From Thermoactinomycetaceae bacterium (GTDB lineage Bacteria; Bacillota; Bacilli; Thermoactinomycetales; Thermoactinomycetaceae), in assembly GCA_025449975.1 (NCBI GenBank), contig JANWIG010000034.1:31452-95451 (forward strand): a DNA stretch of 64,000 bases, written 5' to 3'. Under the pieces are notes generated by a model. It worked only from the letters and a program-made list of their open reading frames with translations. It made no database searches and was not told the DNA's origin. Numbering within the stretch: the stretch's first letter is position 1; each line of letters opens with the position of its first letter. This document shows, piece by piece, positions 6,847-26,751 of the stretch. A program made the translations under genes and the position numbers.

Positions 6847-6873
6847 AAAAAAAATGGGGCTTTTATACCCCAT
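6847..6873 (-). terminator. Rho-independent terminator overlapping the clpC stop codon
   Basis: Minus strand: ATGGGG, 8 nt loop, CCCCAT, then a T-run. Confidence 0.6.
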
Positions 6874-9316
6874 TTATTCGCAATTTATTCTTATTCTTTT
6901 TCTCCACAGTGAGACGATTGTTTTCTACCCCGATCACCACTTGATCTCCGCGACGAATGGTACCACGGAGAAGCTCCTCAGATAGACGATCCTCAATATG
7001 TTTTTGAATCGCTCGTCTCAGCGGTCTTGCGCCATAAGTTTGGTCAAATCCTTCTTTCGCCAAATATACTTTGGCCTCTTTTGTCAATGTAAAGTCGATA
7101 TCTTGCTCCAAGAGACGTTTCCGCAGTTGCTCAGCCATCAAAGAAACAATCTCTTGCAGGTCTTTTTCTTTTAATGTATGGAAGACAATCAAGTCATCTA
7201 CCCGGTTTAAAAACTCAGGACGGAAACTTTTCTTTAACTCTTCCATAACATTTTGTTTCATATTCTCATAGTCATCGCGATTATTCACCGATTGCGTAAA
7301 GCCTAGACGCGTATTTTTGCCGATCGAATGAGCACCGATATTGGAAGTCATGATAATGATCGTATTCCGGAAATCGACTGTTCGACCTTTCCCGTCTGTC
7401 AGTCGACCATCTTCTAGAACTTGCAGGAGAATATTAAACACTTCAGGATGTGCTTTCTCCACTTCATCAAAGAGGACAACCGAATAAGGTTTGCGACGCA
7501 CTTTTTCGGTTAACTGTCCACCTTCTTCATAACCCACATACCCAGGAGGGGAACCGATCAACCGGCTTGTCGCATGCTTCTCCATATATTCGGACATATC
7601 AATTCGAATCATCGCATCTTCTGCACCAAACATCGCTTCAGCTAAAGCACGAGCCAATTCGGTTTTTCCCACTCCCGTAGGACCGAGGAAGATAAATGAG
7701 CCAATTGGACGCTTGGGATCTTTTAACCCTGCTCGTGCCCGACGAATGGCTCGAGCGACGGATTTGACCGCTTCTTCCTGACCGATTACCCGACCATGCA
7801 AGATTTCCTCCAGTTTAAGTAATCGTTCGGTTTCTTCTTGAGCCAGTTTATTCACTGGGACCCCAGTCCAACTAGCTACAACCGTCGCAATATCTTCCGC
7901 CGTTACTTCCGAGTCCGTTTTTCCTTGCGCTTGTTTCCAATTGTTGCGCGTTTGATCTAGCTTCTCTCTTAACTTTTGCTCTTGGTCACGCAAGGCAGCT
8001 GCTTTTTCAAATTCCTGACTTTGAACAGCGGCATCTTTTTCTTTTTTCACCGCTTCCAACTGTTGTTCCAGCTTTTTCAGCTCAGGTGGAACGGTATAGG
8101 AAGATAAGCGAACTTTCGATGCTGCTTCATCGATCAAATCGATGGCTTTATCTGGGAGAAAACGATCGGTAATATAGCGGTCAGATAGTTTTACAGCCTG
8201 CTCAATCGCTTCATCGGTAATTTTTACACGGTGATGTGCTTCATAACGATCCCGCAGTCCTTCCAAAATGAGAATCGCTTCTTCTGGTGTCGGCTCATCG
8301 ACGCGAATCGGTTGGAAACGACGCTCCAAAGCCGCATCTTTTTCGATGTATTTACGGTATTCATCCAAAGTGGTTGCTCCGATGCATTGGAGTTCACCGC
8401 GAGCCAAGGCAGGTTTTAAAATATTGGAAGCATCGATAGCTCCTTCCGCTCCTCCGGCACCGATCAAGGTATGCAATTCATCGATAAAGAGGATAATGTT
8501 TCCAGCCTGCCGAATCTCATCCATGATCTTTTTCAAACGATCTTCAAATTCACCACGATATTTCGTCCCAGCGACTACCGTACCCATATCCAAGGTCATC
8601 ACACGTTTTCCGCGCAACGTTTCTGGAATCTCACCATCAATAATTTTTTGTGCCAAGCCTTCTGCTACTGCTGTTTTACCGACTCCAGGTTCTCCGATCA
8701 AAACAGGATTGTTTTTCGTTCGACGTGACAAGACTTGAATAACACGTTCAATTTCGTGGCTTCGACCAATTACTGGATCCAAGTTATTATCCCGGGCAGC
8801 TTGCGTTAAATCACGTGCCAAACTATCCAAGGTAGGTGTATTGGCATGGGTAGTCGTTCCTTGGTTTCCCCCAGTCAACTCGCTGCTACCGAGCAGTTGT
8901 AAAACTTGCTGACGCGCTTTATTTAAACTAATTCCTAAATTATTCAAAACACGGGCAGCTACTCCTTCTCCTTCACGGATCAATCCAAGGAGAATATGTT
9001 CCGTACCGACATAAGTGTGACCCAATTTTCTCGCTTCATCCATCGAGAGCTCAATCACTTTTTTGGCGCGAGGCGTGTAACCGATATTGCCAGTCTGTCC
9101 CGTTCCTCGACCAATCAGCGTTTCTACTTCTTTTTGGATTTTTTCCAATCCTAGTCCCAGTGCAACAAGCGCTTTGGCAGCAATCCCATCTCCTTCACGA
9201 ACCAGACCGAGCAGAATATGCTCTGTACCAATGCTATTGTGCCCTAGGCGTACTGCTTCTTCCTGAGCCAGTGCTAACACTTTTTGCGCTCTCTCTGTAA
9301 ACCGTCCAAATAACAT
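6863..9316 (-). CDS. clpC: ATP-dependent Clp protease ATP-binding subunit ClpC
   Basis: [14 protein letters not shown] start, two Clp_N repeats, two AAA+ modules ([16 protein letters not shown]) and a UVR-like linker. ATG at 9316 follows AGAGAGGTG; the ORF-track start at 9352 is over-extended. Confidence 0.97.
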
Positions 9317-9395
9317 AGAGTACACCTCTCTTATCGTAAAACTTGTTGACACATTTTTGGTTTCCTTACTTTACTCTCTGTAAAGCGCCGATTAA

Positions 9396-10487
9396 CTAGA
9401 CATCGCTCGACGGACGTCGATTATTTTCAAGTAAAAGTCTTTCACGAATGAGTTTTGCCCGTCGAACATCGCGCTCTTCCGGGTCCAAACGTTGTCCCGC
9501 ATATTGTTGTAGAAAGCCAGGTTGAATGAGTACCATCAATTCATTCATCACACCTGCTGAAACTTCTTTAATTAAATTTAAATCAACTCCCAAGCGAACA
9601 TCGGATAGCCGTTGCATCGCTTCTTTGGAATCCATGATCCGCGAATGAGCAAGGATCCCGTATGAGCGATGGACACGATCTTCCAATTCGAGTGTCGATT
9701 GATTTAAAATTCGTTTGCGTGCATTTAATTCATGTTCGATAATTTGCAGAACGACTCCTTGTAACTTGTCAATAATCTCCTCTTCAGACTGACCCAAGGT
9801 AACTTGGTTGGAAATCTGATATAATTGCCCCAACGCCTCGCTTCCCTCACCATAAATTCCCCGAACAGCTAGCCCTACTTGCGTAATGACGGGGAATAAA
9901 CGAGGAAGCTGTTGTGTCATGGCAAGTGCTGGGAGATGAACCATCACAGAAGCACGAATCCCTGTACCTAAGTTGGTCGGACAGCTAGTGAGATAGCCAC
10001 ATTGATCATCAAAAGCAAACGTAAAATGGGTTTCCAGCCAGTCATCCAATTGGCTAGCCATCTTCCAAGCTTTTTCCAGTTGCAAACCTGGGAAGAGGCA
10101 TTGGATGCGAATATGATCTTCCTCATTTATCATGATGCTGACGGATTCATCTTGACTTAATAAAACAGCACCATTTGGCGACTCTTCCGCCAATTGTGGA
10201 CTAATCAGATGTTTTTCCACCAAGACGCGCTTTTCAAATGGACTTAATTCACTCATTCGAACGAAGGTCGCACCTTCCAATGAGGGAAGATCCGATTTCT
10301 CTTTCCATACATCATGCACCATCCGAACGACTTCTTCTGCTCGCGATGCTGTACTTAAAGTAGGAAACGGCATTCCTGCTAAGTTTCTAGCGATCCGCAC
10401 TCTACTTGAAAAAACAATATCTGATTGTGGTCCTTTTACTTTCATCCATTCACAGACGGCATTTTCCAAAAAACGATGGAGTGACAC
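9396..10487 (-). CDS. mcsB: Protein arginine kinase McsB
   Basis: ATP:guanido phosphotransferase motifs (SSRVRIARN, NEEDHIRIQ, CPTNLGTG). GTG start after GGAGGGAG. Lies in the ctsR operon. Confidence 0.93.
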   Translation of the reverse strand: MSLHRFLENAVCEWMKVKGPQSDIVFSSRVRIARNLAGMPFPTLSTASRAEEVVRMVHDVWKEKSDLPSLEGATFVRMSELSPFEKRVLVEKHLISPQLAEESPNGAVLLSQDESVSIMINEEDHIRIQCLFPGLQLEKAWKMASQLDDWLETHFTFAFDDQCGYLTSCPTNLGTGIRASVMVHLPALAMTQQLPRLFPVITQVGLAVRGIYGEGSEALGQLYQISNQVTLGQSEEEIIDKLQGVVLQIIEHELNARKRILNQSTLELEDRVHRSYGILAHSRIMDSKEAMQRLSDVRLGVDLNLIKEVSAGVMNELMVLIQPGFLQQYAGQRLDPEERDVRRAKLIRERLLLENNRRPSSDV

Positions 10488-10502
10488 AAATCTCTCCCTC
10501 CC

Positions 10503-11024
10503 TCATTGCCCAAGTTGCTCTTGCAAAGCGCGAATCTGGTCTCGAAGCCGAGCTGCCTCCTCAAACTCCTCTGCCTGCACTTTACGAGCAAGTCTTTCCT
10601 TCAAAATTTCAAGTTGACGCCGAATTTTTAACTCACCTTTGGTTCGCTCTGGAATTTTTCCGCGATGAGTAGTATGCCCATGAATTCGTCTGAGCATCGG
10701 TTCCAAATGGGAACGAAATGTATAGTAACAATCACTACAGCCAAAACGACCAAATTTACCAAATTGATTATAGGTAATTCCACAAGTAGGACAACGCAGC
10801 GTTTGTGGTTTTAAGGTCGGTCGACTTTCATGATCAGAAAAAGACGGTTCCATATTTAAAAAGCTTGATAAGAGTTTTTGAAAGGAAAATCCACTTTCCA
10901 AAGTCGGCATTTCTCCTTTTTCATGCGCACAAATTTCACACAAGTACTGTTCTGTCTTATTCCCATTCACGATTTTGGTATAGTGAATAGTCGCTGGACG
11001 CTTTCCACATTCTGGGCAGAGCAT
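10503..11024 (-). CDS. mcsA: McsB activator McsA (zinc-finger plus UVR domain)
   Basis: Repeated CxxC pairs (CPECG, CEIC, CPTCG, CSDC) and a C-terminal UvrB/C-like motif EEFEEAARLRDQIRAL. Confidence 0.92.
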   Translation of the reverse strand: MLCPECGKRPATIHYTKIVNGNKTEQYLCEICAHEKGEMPTLESGFSFQKLLSSFLNMEPSFSDHESRPTLKPQTLRCPTCGITYNQFGKFGRFGCSDCYYTFRSHLEPMLRRIHGHTTHRGKIPERTKGELKIRRQLEILKERLARKVQAEEFEEAARLRDQIRALQEQLGQ

Positions 11025-11033
11025 ATTCCCTAG

Positions 11034-11507
11034 TCACTCTCCTTTATTGGCATATAAAATCGTAACCATCATCCGCATCATTCTAGCCCTAATTTGGTCG
11101 CGGAAGGGAATCGGAACCTGTAAGGTTTCTCTTGAAATCAAGTGACGCATCAAAGTCGCTTCTCGCTCTGTCATTAGCTTGTTTTCTTCAAAACGGCTAA
11201 TGATATGCTCTGCAGCATTTTGTGATATTGAGTGACCAACTTGTTCTAACAAATTGTCATAGTTCGTTGACTGGTGAGGTTGAAGAGGAACTTTACGGAT
11301 TCGGATAAAGCCGCCTCCGCCCCGTTTACTTTCCACGATATACCCTTTTTCAATCGTAAATCGCGTACTGATTACATAATTGATCTGAGAAGGAACACAT
11401 TGAAAAATATCAGCCAATTCACTACGTTTAATTTCAACTACACCGGAATCACTCTCGCTTAGGACTCTTTTGAGATAAAGCTCAATGATGTCCGAAATGC
11501 TACTCAT
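11034..11507 (-). CDS. ctsR: Class III stress gene repressor CtsR
   Basis: MSSISDIIELYLKRVL...IKRSELADIFQCVPSQINYVISTRF is the CtsR signature. First gene of the ctsR-mcsA-mcsB-clpC operon. Confidence 0.95.
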   Translation of the reverse strand: MSSISDIIELYLKRVLSESDSGVVEIKRSELADIFQCVPSQINYVISTRFTIEKGYIVESKRGGGGFIRIRKVPLQPHQSTNYDNLLEQVGHSISQNAAEHIISRFEENKLMTEREATLMRHLISRETLQVPIPFRDQIRARMMRMMVTILYANKGE

Positions 11508-13240: not shown

Positions 13241-14089
13241 ATGTCTTATAAACAGATTAAAGCACTGATTCTTATTTTACCTACTGTCACGATTGGTCTA
13301 TGGGAGTACATTCGTCATGCCTTTTTACTTCCTTATATCTCCATGGATTTAGGAAATTGGCTCTCTCCGGTGATCGTCTTGTTTGTGACGCTCACTGTTG
13401 TTCGAAGATTATTTCTCACTTACGAACATCTCCAAGAAGAACTTGAAAAGGAAAAAGCAGAAAAAACCATTTTTCAAGAAAGAGAGAGAATCGCTCGCGA
13501 ACTTCACGATGGCATTGCCCAATCGCTTTTTCTTTATTCTGTGCAAATTAACCAGATGAAAAAACAGTATCCTTCTTTTGATTGGAGTAAATTAGAAAAA
13601 AGTCTGCGTCAAATGCACGATTATGTTCGACATGCGATCACCAATTTAAAAAATCCACCTGTTATCGATCAAAATCCTTGGAAATCGCAACTTACGAACT
13701 GGCTCGAACAGTATCAATTGGATACGGGACTCATCGTGAAAACAAATTTTTCCTATCCAGCTGAGCAACTAAATCCCAAGGAAAAAGTGGAGCTATTCGC
13801 TTGTACACAGGAAGCTTTAACCAATATTCGAAAACATGCCAAGGCCAAACACATTGAATTATCCTTGATCCCATGGGAAAATGGTTGGAAGTTAGAAATT
13901 ATAGACGATGGGATTGGTTTTAAGTCTGACCCACTTGATAACCCGAACCATTTTGGGCTAAAGATCATGAAAGAGCGAGCCAAAGAAATCGGTGCCACTT
14001 TTTCCTTTTATCGTCAAGGAAACCAAACGATTCTAGTCATTGCAAAGGGGGATAAAAAAAATGGAAACCTATCGGATCGTGATCGGTGA
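13241..14089 (+). CDS. Sensor histidine kinase, HisKA_3 (NarL-partner) type, probably intramembrane-sensing
   Basis: Two N-terminal TM helices with almost no external loop. H-box RIARELHDGIAQSL and HATPase_c motifs (NIRKHA, DDGIGF). Confidence 0.85.
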   Translation: MSYKQIKALILILPTVTIGLWEYIRHAFLLPYISMDLGNWLSPVIVLFVTLTVVRRLFLTYEHLQEELEKEKAEKTIFQERERIARELHDGIAQSLFLYSVQINQMKKQYPSFDWSKLEKSLRQMHDYVRHAITNLKNPPVIDQNPWKSQLTNWLEQYQLDTGLIVKTNFSYPAEQLNPKEKVELFACTQEALTNIRKHAKAKHIELSLIPWENGWKLEIIDDGIGFKSDPLDNPNHFGLKIMKERAKEIGATFSFYRQGNQTILVIAKGDKKNGNLSDRDR

Positions 14090-14720
14090 CGATCATGCAC
14101 ACGCCCGACAAGCAATGCGATTGATTTTAGAAAGTGATCCAGCTTTTGAAATCGTTGCGGAAGCAGAAAATGGCCTCGATGTGATTAAGCTGACGGAACA
14201 ATATATGCCAGATATGATTTTAATGGACATCAATATGCCAAAAATGAATGGTTTGGAGGCTACACGAATTATTAAATCACGCTTTCCATATGTAAAAATC
14301 ATTATGGTTACTGTCTCTGACGATGTATCTGACCTTTTTGAAGCGATTAAAAAAGGGGCCCAAGGATATTTGCTCAAAAACCTAAATCCTTCGATCTGGC
14401 TTGAGTACTTACACTCTCTTGCCCGTGATGATGCGGAAATGCCCAAAGAAGTCGCTCGGCGGATCCTAAATGAATTAAGTCCACCAAGCCAACCGATTGA
14501 AGACAGTGTTCTAACGGCGAGGGAACAAGAAATCCTCACACGAGTAGCGCAAGGGCTGAGTAATAAATCGATTGCTCAGGAATTATATATATCTGAGTAT
14601 ACGGTAAAAAACCATCTAAAAAATATCATGCAAAAATTGCATCTAAATAATCGCGTGCAATTAACGCGTTATGCCTATGAACATGGTTGGGTGCAACCGG
14701 ATCATTCAAAACAAAAATAG
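14061..14720 (+). CDS. LuxR/NarL-family response regulator
   Basis: Receiver domain (GDDH...DMILMDINMP) plus a C-terminal GerE/LuxR HTH (LTAREQEILTRVAQGLSNKSIAQELYISEYTVKNHLKNI). ATG at 14061 after AAGGGGG overlaps the kinase gene end. Confidence 0.9.
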   Translation: METYRIVIGDDHAHARQAMRLILESDPAFEIVAEAENGLDVIKLTEQYMPDMILMDINMPKMNGLEATRIIKSRFPYVKIIMVTVSDDVSDLFEAIKKGAQGYLLKNLNPSIWLEYLHSLARDDAEMPKEVARRILNELSPPSQPIEDSVLTAREQEILTRVAQGLSNKSIAQELYISEYTVKNHLKNIMQKLHLNNRVQLTRYAYEHGWVQPDHSKQK

Positions 14721-14792
14721 CTCAAACGAGGCATTGAGCAAATCGCCTGCCGTTTATATCATGAGTGAAGATAAAAAAAGGAGCAAATTCAG

Positions 14793-15233
14793 ATGAATAA
14801 ACTTACTTCAAGATTGATTACGATTCTCGCCCTTCTTACGATTGTCTTGCTTACTGCTTGTAATAATCAAACAGAAACCAACAACCAACAGCAACCATTA
14901 AGCCCTGATATGCTGCAATTTGGAAATTCACTTACGCTTGATTTCCAAGCTACTCCTGCCACAGTAGAGGCAGGAGAACCGGTTCAATTAAAGGTAAACA
15001 TCAAGCGCCAAAACGAACCAGCTACCGATGCAACGGTACAATTTGAGGTTTGGGAGAAAAGCAGCAAAGAAAAACATCAAATACTAGATGCCAAACACGA
15101 TGGACAAGGGGTCTATTCAACGAGTCAATCCTTTTCCCAAGAAGGGGAATATCTGGTTGTCGTACATGTAACTGCTCCCGGTGTTCACCAAATGGTGGAT
15201 GGCAAATTTCAAGTTGGACAAGGACAAAAATAG
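14793..15233 (+). CDS. Lipoprotein, YtkA/FixH-like
   Basis: Signal peptide with lipobox LTAC. The C-terminal beta domain resembles YtkA-like proteins (by eye, weak). Confidence 0.55.
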   Translation: MNKLTSRLITILALLTIVLLTACNNQTETNNQQQPLSPDMLQFGNSLTLDFQATPATVEAGEPVQLKVNIKRQNEPATDATVQFEVWEKSSKEKHQILDAKHDGQGVYSTSQSFSQEGEYLVVVHVTAPGVHQMVDGKFQVGQGQK

Positions 15234-15243
15234 TCTAATGAAG

Positions 15244-15291
15244 AAAAACACCTTCAAAAATCGAAGTTCGATTCAATGAAGGTGTTTTTTT
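15244..15291. terminator. Bidirectional rho-independent terminator
   Basis: AAAAACACCTTCA ... TGAAGGTGTTTTTTT, with A-run and T-run flanks, between the convergent lipoprotein and M50 genes. Confidence 0.8.
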
Positions 15292-15292
15292 G

Positions 15293-16522
15293 TCAACTGG
15301 TTGTTCTCTGAATTTGCTCGATATAGGGATAAGTCAAGACCATCATATATACCAATAAGGCGATCAACCCTACATAAGCAAACGTATATTGCAAACGCTT
15401 TTTCAAAGGAACTTTATAATATCTTTTTTCTTTCTCAATCACTTCTTCTTTGTCGATAAAAAATTGAATTTCGATATGCAGAAAAACCTGATCCGGATGC
15501 TGTAAATAAGTCTGGGTTTTTACCAGTTCGACCTTCTCAATTTGTCCTTCAAAACCTTTTAGCTGTTTAATCACCCCTACACCGGGGTACTCCACCTCTG
15601 CGATGCTCTCTCTTGTCACTAAATCACTATATTGTCGAAAAGCCAACAGGCGACGATGCTCTTCACCAGGAATCCAGACTCCATTTTGTAAGAATAATTC
15701 CTTTGGAACCTGGATCACATCCTTCATTTTAGTTGGCTTAATCCCTCTCCTCCTTTTGCGGAAACCAGCCCAAAGATCAAATACAAACAGTAAGTAGATA
15801 AATAGTAGGAGGAAACTTTTCAAATAGATCACGAGGATCAGACCGAGAACCAAGCCGACTACCCAAATCCAACGAGTAATCGCCACAACAATCCTACCTC
15901 CATCCATTGGATGAATAGGAAGAAGGTTAAATAGGTTGAGAAAAAAACCAAGCATGGCGACAGCGTAAAAGACATCATAGCCCGTCCATACACCTAATCC
16001 ATAGCATAGAAGCGCACCAATCGTTCCAATCAGCGGTCCTCCATAGGCAATGTAGGCTTCTGTCAAAGCGTCCTGCGGCTGACGCTTCAACATAATCAAG
16101 GCTCCTAAAAAAGGAATAAACGCCGGCGCTGTCACGGGTAATCCTTTTCGTTTTGCCGCCCATACATGCCCCATTTCATGAACCAACATCAGAATGACCA
16201 AGCCAAACGCTAGTTCAAAGGGATAAAGCAAAGCATACGCCCATACCGAAACCGCCAATGAAATCAACGTTCCACCAAATTTTCCTAGCTTCAGTAAGGG
16301 AAGCAATGATTTTAATTTACCGCCAAGACTAAGAAAAATCGCACCGAAGCCCAAGAGCCACGAAAGAATTTTCCCTCGTGGTTTTTTTGGTTTATTTTCA
16401 GCCAAAAAAGACGCTCCTTTCGAAGTTACATTCCAAGTCACGCTGCCGGCAAAACCTATTATTATTATGACAAAAAAATCAACATTTTTGTATAAGAAAT
16501 CCCTCGTCATAAAAGAGGACAC
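15293..16522 (-). CDS. M50 (site-2 protease family) membrane metalloprotease with a C-terminal extension
   Basis: HEMGHVWAAKRKG (HExxH) and NLLPIHPMDGG (NxxPxxxxDG) motifs in a polytopic core. A soluble region of about 125 aa and a terminal TM helix follow. Start is uncertain (GTG 16522 or ATG 16510, both with poor RBS). Confidence 0.8.
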   Translation of the reverse strand: MSSFMTRDFLYKNVDFFVIIIIGFAGSVTWNVTSKGASFLAENKPKKPRGKILSWLLGFGAIFLSLGGKLKSLLPLLKLGKFGGTLISLAVSVWAYALLYPFELAFGLVILMLVHEMGHVWAAKRKGLPVTAPAFIPFLGALIMLKRQPQDALTEAYIAYGGPLIGTIGALLCYGLGVWTGYDVFYAVAMLGFFLNLFNLLPIHPMDGGRIVVAITRWIWVVGLVLGLILVIYLKSFLLLFIYLLFVFDLWAGFRKRRRGIKPTKMKDVIQVPKELFLQNGVWIPGEEHRRLLAFRQYSDLVTRESIAEVEYPGVGVIKQLKGFEGQIEKVELVKTQTYLQHPDQVFLHIEIQFFIDKEEVIEKEKRYYKVPLKKRLQYTFAYVGLIALLVYMMVLTYPYIEQIQRTTS

Positions 16523-16646
16523 TCTACTAAAGAACTAGAAAGTTTGTTCTTAAGTAGAGAGCCCCCTCCTCTTGTAGAAAGTGATCTTTTCCCTATTTTA
16601 GTTCCTTGCACAGATTATTTCTCAATAGGAAATCCGTCACCTAGAC

Positions 16647-16844
16647 CTAGTTGTTTTGAATCGACTTGGTCATTTCTTTCTCTTCATCGAGCTCAAGTTG
16701 AATCGGAGGTAACTGAACCTTTTCTGGCTCCATTTGAAGTGGTGTACTTTTCACCAAAATGTTCGCCTTGCTTTGTCCAGCAAGCCACACTCCCACCAAA
16801 CAGATCATCCCCAGTAATAAAAAAAAGGATCTTTTTCTACTCAT
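16647..16844 (-). CDS. Small pre-protein with a Sec-type signal peptide (candidate secreted peptide)
   Basis: MSRKRSFFLLLGMICLVGVWLAGQSKA / NILVK...: basic n-region, hydrophobic core, SKA cleavage-like site, acidic tail of about 38 aa. AAGGGG sits 6 nt before the ATG at 16844, which is 15 nt after the upstream stop. Confidence 0.5.
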   Translation of the reverse strand: MSRKRSFFLLLGMICLVGVWLAGQSKANILVKSTPLQMEPEKVQLPPIQLELDEEKEMTKSIQNN

Positions 16845-16859
16845 AAACATCCCCTTGAC

Positions 16860-18815
16860 CTATAATGTTTCTGCTTTCTTCAGTCCCTCCTGAAACATTT
16901 TATTATTTGGATCTAGGAAAGTAATCTTACGAAAGACAGAAATGGCATCGGGTTTCTTCTTCAATGCTAGATATGTAAGTCCTAGTTGATAAAGATAATC
17001 GGTATTTTGTGAATCCAGACGAACGGCAGTAAGCGCCGCTTCGTTGGCCAATTCTGTTTCATTTAGGTAATAAAGGGCTTGTGACTGATAATGCCACGCT
17101 TCGGGTAACTTCTGGTTTTGCTTCGTTACTCCCTCCAAGACCTCTCTCGCCTTGATCGCCCAATGATCGAGCAATTCCTGTTTGTCTTCCCCTTTGGTTG
17201 TTTGATCTTTGGCAATTTCCTCTCTTTTCATTAAATAAAGTGCCCCCAATGTAATCTGAAAGTGAGGCTCTCCTTGATCATACTTAACTGCCATCCGTGC
17301 ATAATCGATGCCATCATCCAGCCGATCCAGGTGAGTCAAAAAAACAGCCAAATCATGATAATAGAGGGCTTGATCTTGATGCATATAAATTGCATAAGTT
17401 AAAATATTTACAGCTTTGGTATATTGCTTTAATGCAGCATAGATTTTTGCTTGATGATATAGATAACGAGGATCCTTATTATCAAGTTCCACTGCTTTTT
17501 CACTTGCTTTCTGCGCGGTCGCATAATCTTTTGCATAATATGCATGAACAGCTAGTGCATCAAAAATCCCTGCGTCTTGCGGGAACTTTTTACTTGCAGC
17601 CGTTAAGGTGAGCATACCCGATTTGTAATCTTTTGCTTCACCGTATAGATTGGCCAAATGAAGATAGTATTCTGCTTGATCCAAATCAGCGCTAAGCGCC
17701 TTTCTAGCCAAAATCGTTGATCCTTTTAGATCTTTTCGTTCCCAAGCTTTGACCGATTCTTGATACCAAGCAGCAGCTTGCTCTTTGTCATGCGAAATAT
17801 CAGAGTAGACAATGTTTTCCAAAGAATGGTCTGCCACTGTGACCGAATGTATTTTGATAATCGAAAAAATAAATGCAACTACGCACAAACTACTTACCAA
17901 AAGAAAAATCAACGGCTTGGGAATCGACTTTTTTGGCTTTTTCAACTTTTTTCGAACTACTTTTTTCTTACTTGGTGTGATTTTGTCAGACCATGTTTTC
18001 TTTTTCGTTTTTTGTACAATGTGCAAAGGCTGGATGAGATCAGATGAAATAAATGGACCAGAAGAATTTAGAGCAAAAATCGGTTTTTCATCCGCATATT
18101 CATAGGCTACTTTCCATAGCTCATGAATCCTCGGTCTTTTCAAACGGTTTGTCGCTTGTGTTCTTCCAAAGATCATTTTCAAATTGGGTGGAAGATCTTT
18201 TTCGATCTTCTGTAAAACCTGGGGATCATCCCAACGATTGAGTTCATACTTGTTCGATAACATCATATAAAAGAGCTGTCCCGCTTGGCGGACATCTTCG
18301 CGCTCATCATGTCCTTTTCGCGCATCTTCTGTGGCATGATGCGGGAGTAATCCATTCGGGCCACCATATAAAAATTTTACTTTTCCTTGGGGTGTAATAA
18401 TAATGTTATGGGAATCAACCAAGGCAAACTCACCTTGATCATAACATTTCATCAAATGACTGGTCACCATTTTCATAATATGAGCTGCTTCTCCTATTTT
18501 AAGAGGCGCAGCTTCGAGGAGATACATTTCCAACAGATGTCCTTCAATCTTCTCATACAGTTGATAGACTACTCCATCTTGGATGAAAACGTTAGCAATC
18601 GGATAAAAAATTTCTTCATTGCGGGACATTAGACTTTCTTTGATCTCCTCGTTGGAGTTATGTTGTAGCTTTACGGCATGAACCAAGCGTATGGAAGGAG
18701 ACATGGAAAAGTCTGCGGGATTTTTAACCAAATAAAATACACCATAGATAAAGGGAAAAACTTGTACTACCTTATATTTCTCACAGATCACGTCACCTTT
18801 CCTCTTAATCTCCAC
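16860..18815 (-). CDS. Membrane protein: N-terminal kinase-like (predicted pseudokinase) domain, one TM helix, C-terminal multi-TPR domain
   Basis: Kinase-fold landmarks are degenerate (FALVDSHNII in place of HRDxKPxN, KFLYGG in place of DFG). Lys-rich juxtamembrane stretch, TM helix LIFLLVSSLCVVAFIFSII, then about 8 TPR-like repeats. Confidence 0.7.
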   Translation of the reverse strand: MEIKRKGDVICEKYKVVQVFPFIYGVFYLVKNPADFSMSPSIRLVHAVKLQHNSNEEIKESLMSRNEEIFYPIANVFIQDGVVYQLYEKIEGHLLEMYLLEAAPLKIGEAAHIMKMVTSHLMKCYDQGEFALVDSHNIIITPQGKVKFLYGGPNGLLPHHATEDARKGHDEREDVRQAGQLFYMMLSNKYELNRWDDPQVLQKIEKDLPPNLKMIFGRTQATNRLKRPRIHELWKVAYEYADEKPIFALNSSGPFISSDLIQPLHIVQKTKKKTWSDKITPSKKKVVRKKLKKPKKSIPKPLIFLLVSSLCVVAFIFSIIKIHSVTVADHSLENIVYSDISHDKEQAAAWYQESVKAWERKDLKGSTILARKALSADLDQAEYYLHLANLYGEAKDYKSGMLTLTAASKKFPQDAGIFDALAVHAYYAKDYATAQKASEKAVELDNKDPRYLYHQAKIYAALKQYTKAVNILTYAIYMHQDQALYYHDLAVFLTHLDRLDDGIDYARMAVKYDQGEPHFQITLGALYLMKREEIAKDQTTKGEDKQELLDHWAIKAREVLEGVTKQNQKLPEAWHYQSQALYYLNETELANEAALTAVRLDSQNTDYLYQLGLTYLALKKKPDAISVFRKITFLDPNNKMFQEGLKKAETL

Positions 18816-18841
18816 CTTCCACCCTCCCTTTCTTCCTACCG

Positions 18842-19579
18842 CTAGCTCATCAATTGGCCCAATACCATATGCATTTCTTCGATACTTGGTCTCTCATTGG
18901 TATCAAAAGAAATTGCTTTTGAAATCAAATCAACGAGCGCTGGTGGACAATCTGGTACGTAATCAGTCACTTTAGGCGTTTGTAATCCACTCATCATCGG
19001 ATTGTTACCAGTGATCATCCAATACATCCGAACCCCCATCGTATAGGCATCGGAGGAGTTAATCATTTTAAGAATCGATTCCTCATCCCTTTTTCCCACA
19101 CTATATCCTCTTGGAAAAGCATGAATCGAACCACCATACATAAAGTAAATATCTCGCTGAGGCGTTACAAAAATATTCTGCGGGTGAAGCAACGCAAACT
19201 GCTTCTCGTTATATAATTGAAGTAGGTTATCCATAATCCCATACGAAACCCAGACCATGTCAGAAATGCGAAGTGGAACCGACTTCATCAATTGATAAGC
19301 CAATAGACTCCCTTCAATCTTTTCAAATACTTGATACAAAATACCATCTTCAATAAATACTTCTTTTATTGGACAGAAAATTCTTTCATGTCTTTCGTAT
19401 AGCAGCTCTTCTTTCAGTTGGTTGCGGAAGGTATGAACATCCATCGCATGAATATAGCGTGTAATCGTAAATCCATCTTGTTCTTCATCTGTATAATAAA
19501 GAATCCCGTTAACAAATGGGTACGAACTGATCACTCGGTACTGATCCCTGATTCTTTCATTTAGTCCTTTTGCTTCCAT
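18842..19579 (-). CDS. Soluble kinase-like protein (predicted pseudokinase), paralog of the N-terminal domain of the next gene
   Basis: Shares IF.PI..VFI.DG..YQ..EKIEG.LL and FAL....NI..TPQ....F.YGG with ORF 16860-18815. FALLHPQNIF replaces HRDxKPxN and there is no GxGxxG. Confidence 0.7.
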   Translation of the reverse strand: MEAKGLNERIRDQYRVISSYPFVNGILYYTDEEQDGFTITRYIHAMDVHTFRNQLKEELLYERHERIFCPIKEVFIEDGILYQVFEKIEGSLLAYQLMKSVPLRISDMVWVSYGIMDNLLQLYNEKQFALLHPQNIFVTPQRDIYFMYGGSIHAFPRGYSVGKRDEESILKMINSSDAYTMGVRMYWMITGNNPMMSGLQTPKVTDYVPDCPPALVDLISKAISFDTNERPSIEEMHMVLGQLMS

Positions 19580-19724
19580 AGTTAATATTCCCCTTCTAAC
19601 TCTTGTTTCCTATCTTAAAACACATTTTTTACGAAAAACGATTACCTATTTATTCTAACATGAAGTAGAAGTAGGTGAAATGGATCATTTCGATTTCACT
19701 CATCTAGGAACAGTCATAAACTTT

Positions 19725-19772
19725 TTATGATAAATTAAATTATTTATGATATTATATGATTTAATTTATGAT
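19725..19772. repeat. Four phased copies of T(T/A)ATGAT in a divergent promoter region
   Basis: TTATGAT at 19725, 19744 and 19766; ATATGAT at 19754. The 10-12 bp spacing of the last three suggests an operator array. Confidence 0.5.
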
Positions 19773-19830
19773 TGTTTAGATTGTTTTAGGAATAATCATG
19801 GGTTCTCCCCATGGCAAGTGAGGTTAGTAT

Positions 19831-21117
19831 ATGAACAACGACACATCTTTCAACCAGAAAAAAGCGATCCGTGCCTGGTACATGTATGATTGGGCAAATT
19901 CAGCATTTGCTACAACCATTATGGCTGCAGTCATGCCGATCTATTTTGCCAACGTAGCGAGTCATGGCTTAACAGAGGCTGAATCGACCGCATATTGGGG
20001 ATACACGCAATCGATCGCCTTGGTGATCATTGTTCTTTTATCACCGATCCTCGGAGCAATCGCTGACCAAACCAATGCAAAAAAAGGATTTTTGCGCTTT
20101 TTTACCTATATGGGAGTACTCGCCTGCCTTTTGATGTTTACCATTGATCAAGGGGAATGGTTGTGGGCAGCTATTTTGGTAACGATTGGTACCATTGGTT
20201 TTACAGGAGGCAATGTCTTTTATGATGCTTATTTAACGGATTTGGTTCCTGAAAGGGAGCGAGACCAAGCCTCTTCTCGTGGTTATGCCTATGGTTATCT
20301 TGGCGGCGGCTTATTACTTGCGCTCAACCTCATCATCATTTTAAAACCGGAGCTTTTCCACTTAAATACAACACAAGCTACACAAATCTCCTTCCTATCG
20401 GTTGGAATCTGGTGGTTTTTCTTTTCACTCCCCCTTTTCCGTTATGCTCCTAATGGGAAGAGCAATCTGACTGCAACTCCTTGGATCCCTTTGACCATTG
20501 GTGCTTTTAAACAAGTGGGTAACACCCTGCGCAAAGTAAGGCAACTTCCAGAGCTTTTTAAATTCCTGATTGCCTTTTGGTTCTTTAATGATGGAATCAA
20601 TACCATTATCAAAATGGCAACCATTTATGGAAGCAGCATTGGCATAGGGCAAACGCATCTAATCACCGCACTATTGATCACTCAATTTGTTGGGATCCCT
20701 TGTACGATCCTATTTGGTAAAGTCGCTGATAAAATGGGATCCAAAATCAGTCTTATCATTACGCTGTTTATCTACCTAGGAATTGTTATATTAGGATATT
20801 TCATGAAAAATGAAACACACTTTTACATTCTAGCTATATTGGTGGCATTGGTTCAAGGAGGAAGCCAAGCTTTAAGCCGTTCCATCTTTAGTAAAATGGT
20901 ACCCCAACAGCATAATGCGGAATTCTTTGGTTTTTATGGTCTAACCGGGAAATTCGCTGCGATCTTAGGACCTGCTACGTTCGCCTTTTTTACGCAAACG
21001 ATGGGATCGAGCCGATTTGGCATTATCTCCATCGCTATGTTCTTCCTTATCGGAATTATTCTTCTGTTCTTTGTTCATATCGAGAAAGGAAAAAGAGAAG
21101 CAGAAGCATATCAATAA
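19831..21117 (+). CDS. MFS transporter (UMF1/Atg22-like family by eye)
   Basis: About 12 TM helices; N-terminal AWYMYDWANSAF motif is typical of the UMF1 family. Confidence 0.75.
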   Translation: MNNDTSFNQKKAIRAWYMYDWANSAFATTIMAAVMPIYFANVASHGLTEAESTAYWGYTQSIALVIIVLLSPILGAIADQTNAKKGFLRFFTYMGVLACLLMFTIDQGEWLWAAILVTIGTIGFTGGNVFYDAYLTDLVPERERDQASSRGYAYGYLGGGLLLALNLIIILKPELFHLNTTQATQISFLSVGIWWFFFSLPLFRYAPNGKSNLTATPWIPLTIGAFKQVGNTLRKVRQLPELFKFLIAFWFFNDGINTIIKMATIYGSSIGIGQTHLITALLITQFVGIPCTILFGKVADKMGSKISLIITLFIYLGIVILGYFMKNETHFYILAILVALVQGGSQALSRSIFSKMVPQQHNAEFFGFYGLTGKFAAILGPATFAFFTQTMGSSRFGIISIAMFFLIGIILLFFVHIEKGKREAEAYQ

Positions 21118-23040: not shown

Positions 23041-23080
23041 ATAAATGAAATAAATGGTAGACAGTCTTTCACTGTCTACC
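23041..23080 (-). terminator. Rho-independent terminator overlapping the J-like gene stop codon
   Basis: GGTAGACAG, 7 nt loop, CTGTCTACC, followed on the minus strand by ATTTATTTCATTT. Confidence 0.65.
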
Positions 23081-24419
23081 ATCCGCTTCTCTTTTTCAAA
23101 TAATTGAGGTAAAAATTGCGAACAAGCACAATGGGAACAACGATCACCCATATATAAAACATGAGGAGAAAGAAGACAGTCATCAAGAAAAAGCTCCCTA
23201 CTTTTCCGATCCGATTCCGTAACCACTCATATAAAAATGCAAAGTCCGATCGAAAACTCTTCCCTTGAGCCACTTTCTGAAAAATCCGCCAGACAGGACT
23301 ATATGCTGAGATAATATAAAGAATAGGATAAAGAAATAATGCAATGTAATTACTTAAAAGCGCAAAGTCCAAATGTACTGCTTGTGCATACTCGTTAGAA
23401 AGAGCCAAAATATTTAAAAGAATCAACAATGGAATCAGTGCTACCCAAACCCAACTGCCGGTAAACTTTCGTTTTTGTAACCATTTTATATTATCCAGTG
23501 CTGCATCGATTTTCGTTTGTAAAACGGGATCCGAAAAGGAATAGATCTTCGCCTGATGCAAAAGTGATTCTGACGTCTTAATATTTATATGGGAATGAAT
23601 CGGATAAATACCAGCCGGAAGGAAAGAATTTCCTGTGGAAATGGATGTCCAATCTTGAGTTGCAAACTTAAAGTAAGTACTCCCTAATTGCCGATTGACG
23701 ACTGGATCATTTGGGGCTGATTGCCGACATCTGTTCAAGTAGTCAATCGCTTTTTGCAGTTGGCCCATTTCGCTATATAAGACACCTAATTTATAAACAG
23801 CAGACAAATCTTGGTAATCCATTTCAAGCGCTTGAATATATGCGCGCTCTGCCTGATTCAAATTTTTTAGATTATAGTGTACATCTCCCAAAAAAGTATA
23901 ATAAGCAGGCTGAGGCTCTAACTCACAAGCTCGATGGATGGCGCCAATCGCTTCTTTTACTTCATTGTTTTGATAACGTGCTTGCCCCAATAAAGCCCAT
24001 GCTTCAGCATAATTAGGTACTTGATCAATCAGCCTTTGAGCTAATAACAGCGCATCTACCGTTCTTCCTTGCTTTAAAAGCTCCCAGCCATTTCCTATTT
24101 CCTGTTGGATTTCGGATAAATCGATCTCTGATTGTGATATATCATTAGAACTTGTAGAAGCATCATCGACAGAGTTTGCAGTCAGACTCAACGTATAATC
24201 TTTTAATGATTGATCGTATTCCCGCCTCCGCTCTGGATCTAACAAAGTCGTTTCCACTTGCTCTAACAGCCGTACCATCCGCTCAGCTTCTTGTCGCTTC
24301 TCAAATGAAGGGGAGTTAGTACGTTGGGTCCATTTGCGTAGTTCTCCATAGAGGATCCGGCGAATTTCTTCGTCTGAGGCCATTGAGGAAACATTTAACA
24401 GTTCATAATAGTTCTGCAT
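23076..24419 (-). CDS. J-like domain (no HPD), TPR repeats and a C-terminal multi-TM membrane anchor
   Basis: N-terminus NYYELLNVSSMASDEEIRR...LLDPERRREYD follows the J-domain helix pattern, but TQR occupies the HPD position. TPR-like repeats at about aa 110-250; 3-4 TM helices at the C-terminus. Confidence 0.75.
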   Translation of the reverse strand: MQNYYELLNVSSMASDEEIRRILYGELRKWTQRTNSPSFEKRQEAERMVRLLEQVETTLLDPERRREYDQSLKDYTLSLTANSVDDASTSSNDISQSEIDLSEIQQEIGNGWELLKQGRTVDALLLAQRLIDQVPNYAEAWALLGQARYQNNEVKEAIGAIHRACELEPQPAYYTFLGDVHYNLKNLNQAERAYIQALEMDYQDLSAVYKLGVLYSEMGQLQKAIDYLNRCRQSAPNDPVVNRQLGSTYFKFATQDWTSISTGNSFLPAGIYPIHSHINIKTSESLLHQAKIYSFSDPVLQTKIDAALDNIKWLQKRKFTGSWVWVALIPLLILLNILALSNEYAQAVHLDFALLSNYIALFLYPILYIISAYSPVWRIFQKVAQGKSFRSDFAFLYEWLRNRIGKVGSFFLMTVFFLLMFYIWVIVVPIVLVRNFYLNYLKKRSGW

Positions 24420-24442
24420 ATTGTCAACGTTCCTTCTCTTTT

Positions 24443-25966
24443 TTAACTAATGACTAACTTACCAACCCGTTCTTGTTTTTGTTTTACCTCTTCCTCGGTT
24501 AAATTGGATTTACGATCAATATCTAACTCACCCAAGCGTTTACGTGCGGTTAAGTCGTATACAGATACATGGATAATTCCATCCCGATCATACTCAAAGA
24601 TCACTTCAAGAGGAGCGCCTTTCGGATATGGAGGAACTTTAATGAGAGCCTCACCCACTACCTTGACATAATCCTTATGTGTGTCTTCCCCTTCTGTTAC
24701 TTTGACATGCAGTTCTGTCTGATTATCGACGGCTGTCGAGAAATAACCACTCGCCCGTGCAGGAATAACTGTATCTTTTTTGAGAATGATCGAGTTCACA
24801 TCGACTCCATCCTCATTTAAAGCTAACACACCCAAACTATGTGAATTAACGTCCTCTACATTGATATCTGGGAAGAATGGCGGAACATCCGAACCCGTTC
24901 TACCTTGCTTTTTGTAGATCAACATACCTTGGATCGCTGCTCCCATCGCAACAACTTCATCTGGATTCACATCCAAAGAAGGAGTCAAACCAGTGACACG
25001 TTGAATCATCTCTGGAACGGATTTCATCCGTGTGGATCCACCCACCAACAGGACACGGTCGATATCGCTCCATTGCAATCCTGCATCTTCTAAGACGAAT
25101 TGCATAATGGTTTGGGTTTGACGTAGCAAATGAGCAGTAATCTCTTCAAATTTCTGTCTGGTCAAGGTAACCCGACCATTTACCCCATTGGCCGACAAGA
25201 AGACTTGCGTGCTGTCCAGCCGTGAAATGTTTTTCTTGGCAATCTCTGCTTTATCTCGCAAATCTTGTTCCAGAACGGCATCATCGAGTAGATCAATTCC
25301 GCCCATTTTCTTAAACTCGTCATTTAGATAGTTCATAATACAGTTATCCCAATCAAAACCACCTAAGTTTTTAGAGCCACCGGTCGAAAGTACCCGCAGA
25401 CCATCTGGATTGAGCCTCATAATTGTTACATCAAAGGTACCTCCTCCGAGATCATAAACTAAGATCGTTTGCTGCAGATGCATTTTGTCCAATCCATAAG
25501 CCAATGCAGCCGCAGTCGGTTCGTTGATAATTCGAAGTACATTCAATCCTGCAATCCGTCCAGCATCTTGTGTCGCTTTACGCTGAGCATCGTCAAAATA
25601 AGCTGGAACGGTAATCACTGCATCGGTGATCGGCTCTCCTAACAATGTTTCGGCATCCTCTTTCAATCTTCGTAAAATCATGGCCGAAATTTCTTCAGGG
25701 GTATAAACTTCATTCTGCTCTGTGCGAAACTTCCAATTTTTATCACCAAGCTGTCGTTTTACAAACTGGACCACATTCAGCGGGTTAGCAACTGCCGAAC
25801 GTTTGGCGATGCTACCGACGATCGGACCAGAATGATCAAATAAAACAACAGATGGGGTAATTCTTTCGCCATCACGGTTGATCAATATTTCCGGTCTCCC
25901 GTACTTATTCACAACCGCCAAAGCAGAAAAGGTTGTACCTAAGTCAATCCCCACGACTCTTCCCAT
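24443..25966 (-). CDS. Hsp70-family ATPase, short form lacking most of the alpha-helical lid
   Basis: GIDLGTTFS, TVPAYFDDAQRKATQDAG, IINEPTAAALAYG, DLGGGTFDV and LVGGSTRM motifs, plus a beta substrate-binding domain. Only 507 aa, whereas I recall about 610 aa for DnaK. Confidence 0.9.
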   Translation of the reverse strand: MGRVVGIDLGTTFSALAVVNKYGRPEILINRDGERITPSVVLFDHSGPIVGSIAKRSAVANPLNVVQFVKRQLGDKNWKFRTEQNEVYTPEEISAMILRRLKEDAETLLGEPITDAVITVPAYFDDAQRKATQDAGRIAGLNVLRIINEPTAAALAYGLDKMHLQQTILVYDLGGGTFDVTIMRLNPDGLRVLSTGGSKNLGGFDWDNCIMNYLNDEFKKMGGIDLLDDAVLEQDLRDKAEIAKKNISRLDSTQVFLSANGVNGRVTLTRQKFEEITAHLLRQTQTIMQFVLEDAGLQWSDIDRVLLVGGSTRMKSVPEMIQRVTGLTPSLDVNPDEVVAMGAAIQGMLIYKKQGRTGSDVPPFFPDINVEDVNSHSLGVLALNEDGVDVNSIILKKDTVIPARASGYFSTAVDNQTELHVKVTEGEDTHKDYVKVVGEALIKVPPYPKGAPLEVIFEYDRDGIIHVSVYDLTARKRLGELDIDRKSNLTEEEVKQKQERVGKLVIS

Positions 25967-26136
25967 TTCTTTTTCACGCTCCTTTGACAGAAAGTAACAT
26001 CAAATCAAATAAGCCATTCTCCACTGTTTCCATACGTTAATATAATAACCCTTTGGGATGGTCTGAAGGAAGACCATGAAAACCACCAAATGAAAAACAA
26101 CTCCCAACGATAAACTCATTGGGATGTTTTCCGAGC

Positions 26137-26751
26137 TTAGGGTTTATATTTTTTTATGACTACTTCTTCTGGGCGCAATAGAACATCTTTATATTTGAAC
26201 CCATGGCGTACTACTTCTACTACATAGTTATCCTCTTGAGGATTGGATGTTTGAACCACTCCGATGACTTGCTGTTTGCTCGGATCAAAGATTGGAGATG
26301 GGCAAACAATCAGCTCCACACTCCTACGATATAAAATTTCGATCAACTCATGACTTAATGACTCTAGCAAGTTGGTGATCTCAGGTGAAGCAGATCCATT
26401 GTTGACTTTTTCTTTATAAATATTATTCATCCGATCAATAAGCAGAATTAAGTCAATATACAGGGGACGAAGTTGATTCAGTTCCCGATCTTGTTTTAGT
26501 TCGTCCATTTCTTGATACAGCCGTTCAAAAGCCGCTTCTTTAGTCTTGTCATTTTTTAATCGTGATTCAAACAAACGCACTAAAGAGTTAAAGTTCGATT
26601 GCAGTTGTGACAAAAAAGAGAGAACTTGCTTCTCTTGTAAAGGTTCATTCCTTCTATGCATATCTTCCCTAGACATCCGAAATCTCATCCGTCTAGATTC
26701 TTGTGGAACGAGGTGGCCAGTAATTTCGTTTCTCCCTTTGTTGGGATCCAT
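26137..26751 (-). CDS. GrpE-like nucleotide exchange factor (divergent)
   Basis: Coiled-coil N-terminal half. C-terminus ...SPIFDPSKQQVIGVVQT...VVEVVRHGFKYKDVLLRPEEVVI matches the GrpE beta-domain pattern (FDP..H.A / G(Y/F)...R.LRPA.V.V). GGGAGGAA RBS. Confidence 0.7.
   Translation of the reverse strand: MDPNKGRNEITGHLVPQESRRMRFRMSREDMHRRNEPLQEKQVLSFLSQLQSNFNSLVRLFESRLKNDKTKEAAFERLYQEMDELKQDRELNQLRPLYIDLILLIDRMNNIYKEKVNNGSASPEITNLLESLSHELIEILYRRSVELIVCPSPIFDPSKQQVIGVVQTSNPQEDNYVVEVVRHGFKYKDVLLRPEEVVIKKYKP

Follow-up and report, generated by a model that had tools for sequence, protein, structure and literature searches.

What can a transmembrane protein of the PknB type still do once its kinase domain has lost its catalytic residues, and what might a small secreted peptide encoded directly behind it contribute? 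These questions are raised by a locus at positions 15293-19579 of a 64,000-nt stretch of DNA from a Thermoactinomycetaceae bacterium (contig JANWIG010000034.1, positions 31,452-95,451), to which we refer as the window. The locus contains four co-directional open reading frames (ORFs) on the minus strand, namely, g1 (18842-19579; a soluble pseudokinase), g2 (16860-18815; a tetratricopeptide repeat [TPR] pseudokinase), g3 (16647-16850; a small secreted peptide), and the ORF of an M50 site-2 protease (15293-16522). The initial annotation had read all four as one unit. It was correct about the presence and direction of the ORFs and about the spacings of 26 nt between g1 and g2 and of 9 or 15 nt between g2 and the small ORF. 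Judged by gene arrangement and conservation, however, only g1, g2, and g3 make up the unit, an operon that is restricted to the Thermoactinomycetaceae and does not include the M50 gene. In our overall picture, g2 would serve as a transmembrane receptor or scaffold of a non-catalytic kind, and g3 is the candidate ligand of its TPR domain; based on sequence and modeled structures, we consider the case for this picture to be evenly balanced.

Pseudokinase domains, membrane topology, and the secreted peptide

The g1 gene (18842-19579, minus strand) encodes a 245-aa protein without any hydrophobic segment, which profile searches and alignment identified as a soluble Hanks-type pseudokinase. Residues 1-240 of g2 (18096-18815, minus strand) form a domain of the same type, predicted to be cytoplasmic, and the two are paralogues that share ~30% identity. 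In Pfam and NCBIfam, all kinase matches of g1 and g2 were below threshold (Pfam Pkinase, 17.6 bits for this family compared to a threshold of 31.7 bits). A profile derived from 22 g1 and g2 N-domain sequences was compared with the PDB and matched Staphylococcus aureus PknB/Stk1 (E = 1.5e-14) and StkP (E = 1e-6). The AlphaFold2 (AF2) model of g2 residues 1-245 had a predicted local distance difference test (pLDDT) score of 87.4 and a predicted template modeling score of 0.87, and its best Foldseek matches in the PDB were Stk1/PknB (E = 1e-12) and PknB of Mycobacterium tuberculosis. Profile, model, and fold comparison thus agree on a bilobal protein-kinase fold.

Of the hallmarks of active Hanks kinases, both proteins lack the GxGxxG loop as well as the Asp residues of HRD and DFG, and they have no conserved beta3 Lys. 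The HRDIKPQN motif aligns with F-A-L-V-D-P-Q-N, so that the catalytic Asp is replaced by Leu or Ile (family pattern (F/L)(A/T)(L/I)), and DFG aligns with Y-G-G (family pattern about (F/L/M)(Y/F/H)GG). The Gly-rich loop is replaced by FPFVxG, and the position of the beta3 Lys (aa 49) is occupied by K, E, Q, D, or A across the 22 sequences. The earlier claim that both kinase-like proteins are catalytically dead was therefore borne out, and, according to sequence and model, g1 and the g2 N-domain are Hanks-type pseudokinases that originated from the PknB lineage.

In the g2 protein (651 aa), a Lys-rich linker and one transmembrane (TM) helix connect this kinase-like N-domain with about 8.5 TPRs, an architecture that had been proposed with ~8 TPRs and that is supported by Pfam, hydropathy, and AF2. 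The TM helix, located by hydropathy at aa ~302-322 (17850-17912, minus strand), follows a Lys-rich juxtamembrane stretch (aa ~270-301). Topology was assessed by hydropathy and charge counts in 20 g2 homologues according to the positive-inside rule. In the g3-linked homologues, the 30 residues that precede the TM helix contain 7 to 14 K/R, and 0 to 3 K/R along with 4 to 7 D/E were counted after it. This charge bias is kept in 15 g3-linked homologues as well as in a g3-less Shimazuella paralogue (L015; locus labels of the form L0xx designate related genomes), and it is weaker in distant loci that contain g2 only. Because of this bias, an N-in/C-out orientation is predicted for g2, which would place the TPR domain outside the cell, as suggested before.

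The predicted extracytoplasmic domain (16863-17786, minus strand) is a TPR superhelix of 17 helices, corresponding to ~8.5 repeats. Pfam TPR families gave clear matches over g2 residues ~345-651, and the AF2 model of the ectodomain showed one continuous 17-helix superhelix (pLDDT 95.2). The best Foldseek matches of this model were the 8-repeat consensus TPR protein CTPR8 and the TPR superhelix of OGT. Both of these superhelices hold extended peptides in their groove. Receptors of the RRNPP family were absent from the top 50 Foldseek matches of the ectodomain.

The third gene, g3 (16647-16844, minus strand; ATG at 16844), encodes a 65-aa pre-peptide with a Sec signal, a predicted cleavage site after SKA, and a mature peptide of 38 aa with the core NILVKSTPLQMEPEKVQLPPIQ. 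The 65-aa product is the likely one because the ribosome-binding site (RBS) AAGGGG abuts the first ATG of the ORF and is found 6 nt before the second (16844), a spacing that fits the latter. The NCBI and JGI records both call g3 as a gene, the NCBI entry being the 65-aa form, and neither Pfam nor NCBIfam contained a match for it. A word-index homology search retrieved only g3 itself and one relative. Using tblastn and ORF inspection, we found a homologous ORF directly 3' of g2 in 14 of the 16 first-round loci and in L023, an 88%-identical metagenomic relative, and hence in 15 genomes; the small ORF is thus genuine and conserved, lies close behind the TPR gene, and passes the conservation check set in the initial annotation.

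Inspection of the 15 aligned sequences revealed a basic n-region, a hydrophobic core, and a small-x-small cleavage site in each homologue; g3 thus has all the elements of a Sec-secreted peptide (n-region, h-region, and a cleavage site of the AxA type). Conservation is found in the mature region, where the core (I/V)x(V)(K/R/Q)(T/S/V)PxL(Q/E)M(E/Q)(P/L)(E/D)x(I/V)..P(I/L/V)(P/Q) (n = 15 genomes) is kept across genera in which g2 identity is just 33-40%. The g3 peptides of the window and of L023 are 100% identical over GQSKANILVKSTPLQMEPEKV, and their signal peptides and tails have diverged. Across the subclade, the mature peptide is 24 to 45 aa long, and its net charge ranges among the homologues from 0 to -5; in Thermoflavimicrobium daqui and T. 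dichotomicum, the nearest of the named relatives, g3 stops after a mature peptide of 24 aa. Of the secreted mini-protein described initially, the 65-aa Sec pre-protein is thus retained, whereas its acidic tail of ~38 aa lacks conservation and is missing from these two species. In the window, the g2 stop codon TAG is in frame with g3 (16844-16862, minus strand), the two being separated by TAG-VKG(-MF), and read-through at this TAG would join the peptide to the TPR domain. The in-frame arrangement is not conserved, as out-of-frame overlaps are seen in other genomes.

Across the loci, g1 and g2 either overlap by 1-8 nt or are separated by ~26 nt, and between g2 and g3 there is either an overlap of 4-29 nt or a gap of up to 24 nt; by this arrangement, g2 is translationally coupled to the upstream g1 and the downstream g3 in one subclade. 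Upstream of g1, a consensus scan identified a candidate sigma-A-type promoter (19652-19679, minus strand) composed of TTCACC as the -35 element, a 16-nt spacer, and the extended -10 element TGtTAGAAT (19660-19652). The sequence TGnTA(G/C)AAT was present ~70-100 nt 5' of the first gene in all loci examined, including those of Kroppenstedtia and Marininema, and its conservation and consensus point to a function as the operon promoter. A second motif, TTCTACT(C/T)T, recurs 5' of the extended -10 element at varying distance (window 19661-19675, minus strand; equivalents in L003-L010) and may be a regulator-binding site. At the other end, g1-g2-g3 is closed by a terminator-like stem-loop followed by UUUU (16508-16566, minus strand), with a folding energy of -26.2 kcal/mol (z-score -6.36; 0 of 200 shuffled sequences folded equally well) and a predicted counterpart at the matching position in L023. 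Terminator-like hairpins with a U-tract were predicted 0-25 nt 3' of the g3 stop in 10 related genomes (L001, L003-L010, and L012). No RNA family was found in an Rfam scan of window positions 15000-20200.

An exhaustive phmmer search with g1 against 1.84 billion representatives returned 29 proteins at E <= 1e-10, beyond which came a steep drop in score, with ordinary kinases at E ~1e-5. Besides a few short or fragmentary entries, these 29 matches were of the g1 type (244-267 aa) or the g2 type; TPRs were present in each of the eight proteins of the g2 type that were scanned (586-727 aa), and all named family members belong to the Thermoactinomycetaceae. The g1-g2-g3 arrangement characterizes a subclade that comprises Thermoflavimicrobium, Thermoactinomyces, Laceyella, and Lihuaxuella, in the loci of which g1 was found; Shimazuella has g2-g3 without g1, and Kroppenstedtia, Marininema, Melghirimyces, and Hazenella have g2 with neither g1 nor g3. 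Since g2 occurs alone in several genera, it represents the ancestral core, to which g1, as a duplicate of the N-domain, and g3 were added later. Genes of the g1 type that are not linked to g2 were observed in Hazenella coriacea, Polycladospora, and Staphylospora; in H. coriacea (SMAG01000004; L017:1-249), such a gene of 244 aa is located ~6 kb 5' of the M50 gene, on a contig that differs from that of g2.

Proposed receptor, signaling, and scaffold functions

From this composition, we infer that the TPR domain may bind a peptide, that g1 and g2 may pair, and that the output may be of a non-catalytic nature. The TPR superhelix would bind an extended extracellular polypeptide, for which the core of ~20 residues that is conserved in mature g3 would be the best candidate in the g3-bearing subclade. 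Occupancy would alter how the cytoplasmic pseudokinase domain associates with g1 or self-associates, and the output would be non-phosphorylating, acting as a scaffold or allosterically. In its most specific form, this proposal regards g2 and g3 as a cell-surface receptor-ligand pair that would sense the peptide of its own operon and signal in a phosphorylation-free manner by re-pairing with g1; judged from the sequences, this form appears doubtful, and peptide sensing in a true autocrine or quorum mode makes up only a lesser share of the overall picture.

Several known systems resemble parts of this arrangement. The closest by homology to the g2 N-domain, in sequence as well as in structure, are PknB/Stk1/PrkC, which like g2 consist of a cytoplasmic kinase fold, a juxtamembrane linker, one TM helix, and an extracellular sensor. 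Unlike these kinases, g2 has lost the catalytic hallmarks, carries a TPR superhelix in place of PASTA repeats, and has two partners, one a soluble paralogue and the other a secreted peptide. In gene order, the nearest systems are those of the RRNPP family (Rap-Phr, NprR-NprX, PlcR-PapR), in which a TPR gene is followed by the gene of a small Sec-exported pro-peptide, often with overlap. In RRNPP systems, the mature oligopeptide re-enters the cell through Opp and occupies the groove of the TPR receptor. The pro-peptide gene beside the TPR gene is also found here (g3 after g2 in 15 genomes), but the cytoplasmic TPR receptor with a helix-turn-helix or phosphatase effector is not, since g2 has a predicted C-out TPR domain and a pseudokinase. 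Moreover, the conserved part of RRNPP peptides is a C-terminal 5-8-mer, whereas in g3 it is the core at the N-terminal end of the mature peptide.

The recent atlas of bacterial serine/threonine kinases (bSTKs) describes the pseudokinase families ActPs1-3, CP1, DYD, DLHK, and GLW, of which DYD spans actinobacteria and firmicutes, and the TPR-bearing kinase families Strep1/2, PknG, GN-NS1, and Myxo1 (10.1101/2025.01.12.632604, PMC12599244). Pseudokinases without the VAIK Lys, HRD Asp, and DFG Asp and kinases with C-terminal TPRs are thus both known classes, but these bSTK and pseudokinase surveys present none of the seven listed pseudokinase families as Firmicutes-only with TPRs and none of the listed TPR families as a pseudokinase of Firmicutes (10.1101/2025.01.12.632604, PMC12599244). 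The g1/g2 family was probably not sampled by them because it scores below the Pfam Pkinase threshold from which they started. Our literature search retrieved no paper that joins Thermoactinomyces with pseudokinases and none on a bacterial pseudokinase with extracellular TPRs. A functional analogy exists with plant CLV2/CORYNE and CLE peptides (PMC4983110), which likewise combine a membrane pseudokinase and a secreted peptide, and whose ectodomain and peptide are not homologous to g2 and g3.

A number of observations weigh against the view that g2 senses g3 or that the operon ends strictly behind it. Because g2 lacks g1 and g3 in four genera, the ancestral ligand of the TPR domain cannot be g3; this distribution weakens the case for a peptide-sensing function, which would nonetheless be plausible. 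The charges of the ectodomain and of mature g3 showed no consistent pattern of complementarity, and the comparison of g3-linked with g3-less g2 proteins revealed no clean ligand-specific signature in the ectodomain, a comparison that is confounded by phylogeny since the g3-less Shimazuella protein L015 keeps the same residues. In addition, the hairpin behind g3 in the window has G-U-rich outer pairs and a short U-run and is located 81 nt past the g3 stop, the terminators of the 10 relatives being stronger and more canonical, and some transcription may pass it into the M50 gene as partial read-through.

Considering that g2 by itself is what all branches of the family have in common, we weighed whether it is a structural or scaffolding protein of the envelope, associated with the cell-wall or polar-growth machinery, with g1 and g3 as stoichiometric accessory subunits. 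We regard this main rival as possible, albeit on the unlikely side. Models for such a role would be, by analogy, EssB/YukC of the type VII secretion system (T7SS) and the MviN pseudokinase domain in mycobacteria. By architecture, EssB/YukC (T7SSb) and TraF of the pIP501 type IV secretion system (T4SS) are indeed nearest to g2, as they possess an N-in pseudokinase, one TM helix, and an extracellular helical domain. These proteins serve, without catalysis, as hubs for interactions (PMC9600267, PMC13037476, PMC12599244), so that membrane pseudokinase hubs have precedents in YukC and TraF (PMC9600267, PMC13037476). The housekeeping-type extended -10 promoter and the translational coupling, which suggests equimolar subunits, agree with a scaffold, as does the neighborhood in Kroppenstedtia and Marininema, where g2 adjoins a GT4 glycosyltransferase gene and a DivIVA-domain gene, opposite a sortase-MFS (major facilitator superfamily) operon.

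However, this GT4/DivIVA neighborhood is missing in the clade of the window, the operon of which contains neither secretion-system nor cell-wall genes. The g1-g3 neighborhood contains MFS, M50, ytkA, and two-component system genes and none for a T7SS (EssC, WXG100) or T4SS. Hidden Markov model searches and Foldseek group the domain with PknB/Stk1 rather than EssB, and EssB/YukC was found neither among the 60 of 199 PDB sequence matches (E <= 1) listed nor among the 50 fold matches listed. Coupling is also compatible with signaling, since the genes of rap-phr signaling cassettes overlap as well.

The M50 protease gene and other neighbors

The M50 gene (15293-16405, minus strand) encodes a site-2 protease of 370 aa that is a neighbor of the operon, with its start, a TTG at 16405 preceded by the RBS GAAAGGAG at 16421-16414, assigned from homologues and DNA alignment. 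The M50 assignment itself was confirmed by Pfam (Peptidase_M50, E = 5e-18), by a match to MjS2P (3B4R; E = 7.5e-11), and by the motifs HExxH (HEMGH) and NxxPxxxxDGG (NLLPIHPMDGG), which align with those of MjS2P in a polytopic membrane core. The homologues all start with MxE(N/D/E)xSKKPR and are 358-375 aa long, GAAAGGAG and TTG are invariant in a four-way DNA alignment, and a 1-nt indel 5' of the TTG disrupts the longer M50 frame in L023; for these reasons, we place the start at 16405. The GTG at 16522 (409-aa ORF) was rejected as a start because it is over-extended by 39 codons (16406-16522), a segment that overlaps the post-g3 hairpin. The interval before the M50 gene had been given as 124 nt without a convincing terminator. 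The true gap after g3 amounts to 241 nt and holds the stem-loop with UUUU at 16566-16508. The 110 nt between this hairpin and the M50 RBS are nearly identical in L023, and inspection by eye of the region upstream of the M50 gene in the window revealed no convincing match to a sigma-A or sporulation-sigma promoter.

The initial annotation had proposed a four-gene peptide-signaling module, in which the M50 protease would either mature g3 or cut the TM helix of g2 and free the pseudokinase by regulated intramembrane proteolysis. The protease gene is adjacent and co-directional in the window, in Thermoflavimicrobium, in Thermoactinomyces, and in two Laceyella species, its catalytic motifs are intact, and the type-II N-in topology predicted for g2 is typical of site-2 protease substrates. 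We nevertheless consider this module improbable, since the four genes fail to co-occur, an outcome that the initial annotation had itself named as refuting. In Shimazuella, the M50 gene is off-locus, a carbamoyltransferase-like gene occupying its place, and in Hazenella, g2 and the M50 gene are on separate contigs. The M50 protein has >3600 homologues, and orthologues with 45-50% identity are present in many Bacillales without g1-g3, full-length ones among them in Effusibacillus, Aneurinibacillus, Ammoniphilus, and Desmospora, all of which are without g2.

Furthermore, contrary to the claim that no terminator separates g3 from the M50 gene, hairpins are predicted in silico at this site in the window and in the 10 relatives, and a tRNA-Ala gene is inserted there at four loci, those of three Laceyella species and Lihuaxuella. 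In Laceyella putida and Lihuaxuella, the M50 gene is 3.4-4.8 kb away from g3, beyond the tRNA-Ala and a 3-5 kb ABC-transporter cluster (yip1-yknX-ABC-ftsX-like), and this same cluster is located 5' of the M50 gene in Hazenella and Desmospora. The terminator of the respective upstream gene precedes the M50 gene in L003, L007, L008, L017, and L018. Maturation of the peptide in the manner of Eep is disfavored as well, since conservation in g3 is found in the mature region and the signal peptide is variable, contrary to Eep substrates.

The adjacency of g3 and the M50 gene is uninformative because the entire block from MFS to ctsR is syntenic, in the order MFS(-), g1, g2, g3, M50, ytkA(-), response regulator(-), histidine kinase(-), HAD, mgtC, ctsR-mcsA-mcsB, where (-) denotes the orientation opposite to g1; the MFS, ytkA, and two-component genes on either side share in this synteny to the same extent as the M50 gene. 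By its distribution and surroundings, the M50 gene is a broadly conserved gene of the Bacillales with predicted independent transcription, which would adjoin g3 in the window through loss of the intervening genes (tRNA-Ala and the yip1-yknX-ABC-ftsX-like cluster). A link between protease and peptide, tempting as it may be, is unsupported. The M50 gene is followed by a bidirectional terminator shared with the convergent ytkA-like gene (15244-15291), the strong hairpin noted previously, with a folding energy of -23.3 kcal/mol (z-score -6.16) and A-run/U-run flanks.

An anti-phage defense system related to the PD-T4-6 and MADS6 kinases can be practically dismissed, since the C-lobe matches to PD-T4-6 and Mad6 in PADLOC/NCBIfam that suggest it (E = 1e-5 to 1e-8; 20-32 bits) are weak and far below the family cut-offs (e.g., 32 versus 460 bits), as expected for generic kinase-fold likeness, the catalytic residues are missing, and the locus shows stable chromosomal synteny across genera beside ctsR-clpC and is no variable island.

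As for the remaining neighbors, the most constant one of g2 (~15 of 20 loci) is an MFS/ATG22-like transporter gene that is divergent from g1 (19831-21117, plus strand) and that shares an operon with a sortase gene in Kroppenstedtia and Marininema; a functional link or a common regulatory region is possible. Farther upstream (23076-26751, minus strand), three consecutive genes resemble a chaperone trio of non-canonical type, encoding a 204-aa protein similar to GrpE, a short Hsp70 of 507 aa, and a 447-aa protein that combines a J-domain with TPRs. Synteny is kept for the Hsp70/J-TPR pair in Shimazuella and for the Hsp70 gene in T. vulgaris/intermedius. On the other side (13241-15233, plus strand), the genes of a histidine kinase with HisKA_3, a response regulator of the LuxR type, and a lipoprotein resembling YtkA are convergent with M50 and are syntenic in nearly all loci, including that of the M50-less Shimazuella. 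At 6863-11507 (minus strand), the same synteny block includes the stress operon ctsR-mcsA-mcsB-clpC, which follows genes for HAD and MgtC. Polymorphic-toxin immunity clusters are close to the locus in two genera: in Kroppenstedtia pulmonis, five tandem paralogues of ~275 aa, of which three match Imm49 faintly or weakly, are encoded 3' of g2 (L020:12210-17225), and an AHH nuclease toxin and Imm11 are encoded near g2 in Marininema.

Significance for the family

Bacterial pseudokinases are barely characterized, and the family described here offers a compact, conserved three-gene test case, with well-defined candidate promoter and terminator elements, for how a PknB-type receptor functions after losing catalysis. 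It could also show whether an extracellular TPR domain reads a co-encoded secreted peptide. If true, this would constitute a peptide-signaling route in Gram-positive bacteria unlike that of RRNPP systems, which depend on import and a cytoplasmic TPR domain, and unlike the Agr/Com systems, which employ histidine kinases. The restriction of g1-g3 to the mycelial, spore-forming Thermoactinomycetaceae may bear on the unusual growth habit of these bacteria.

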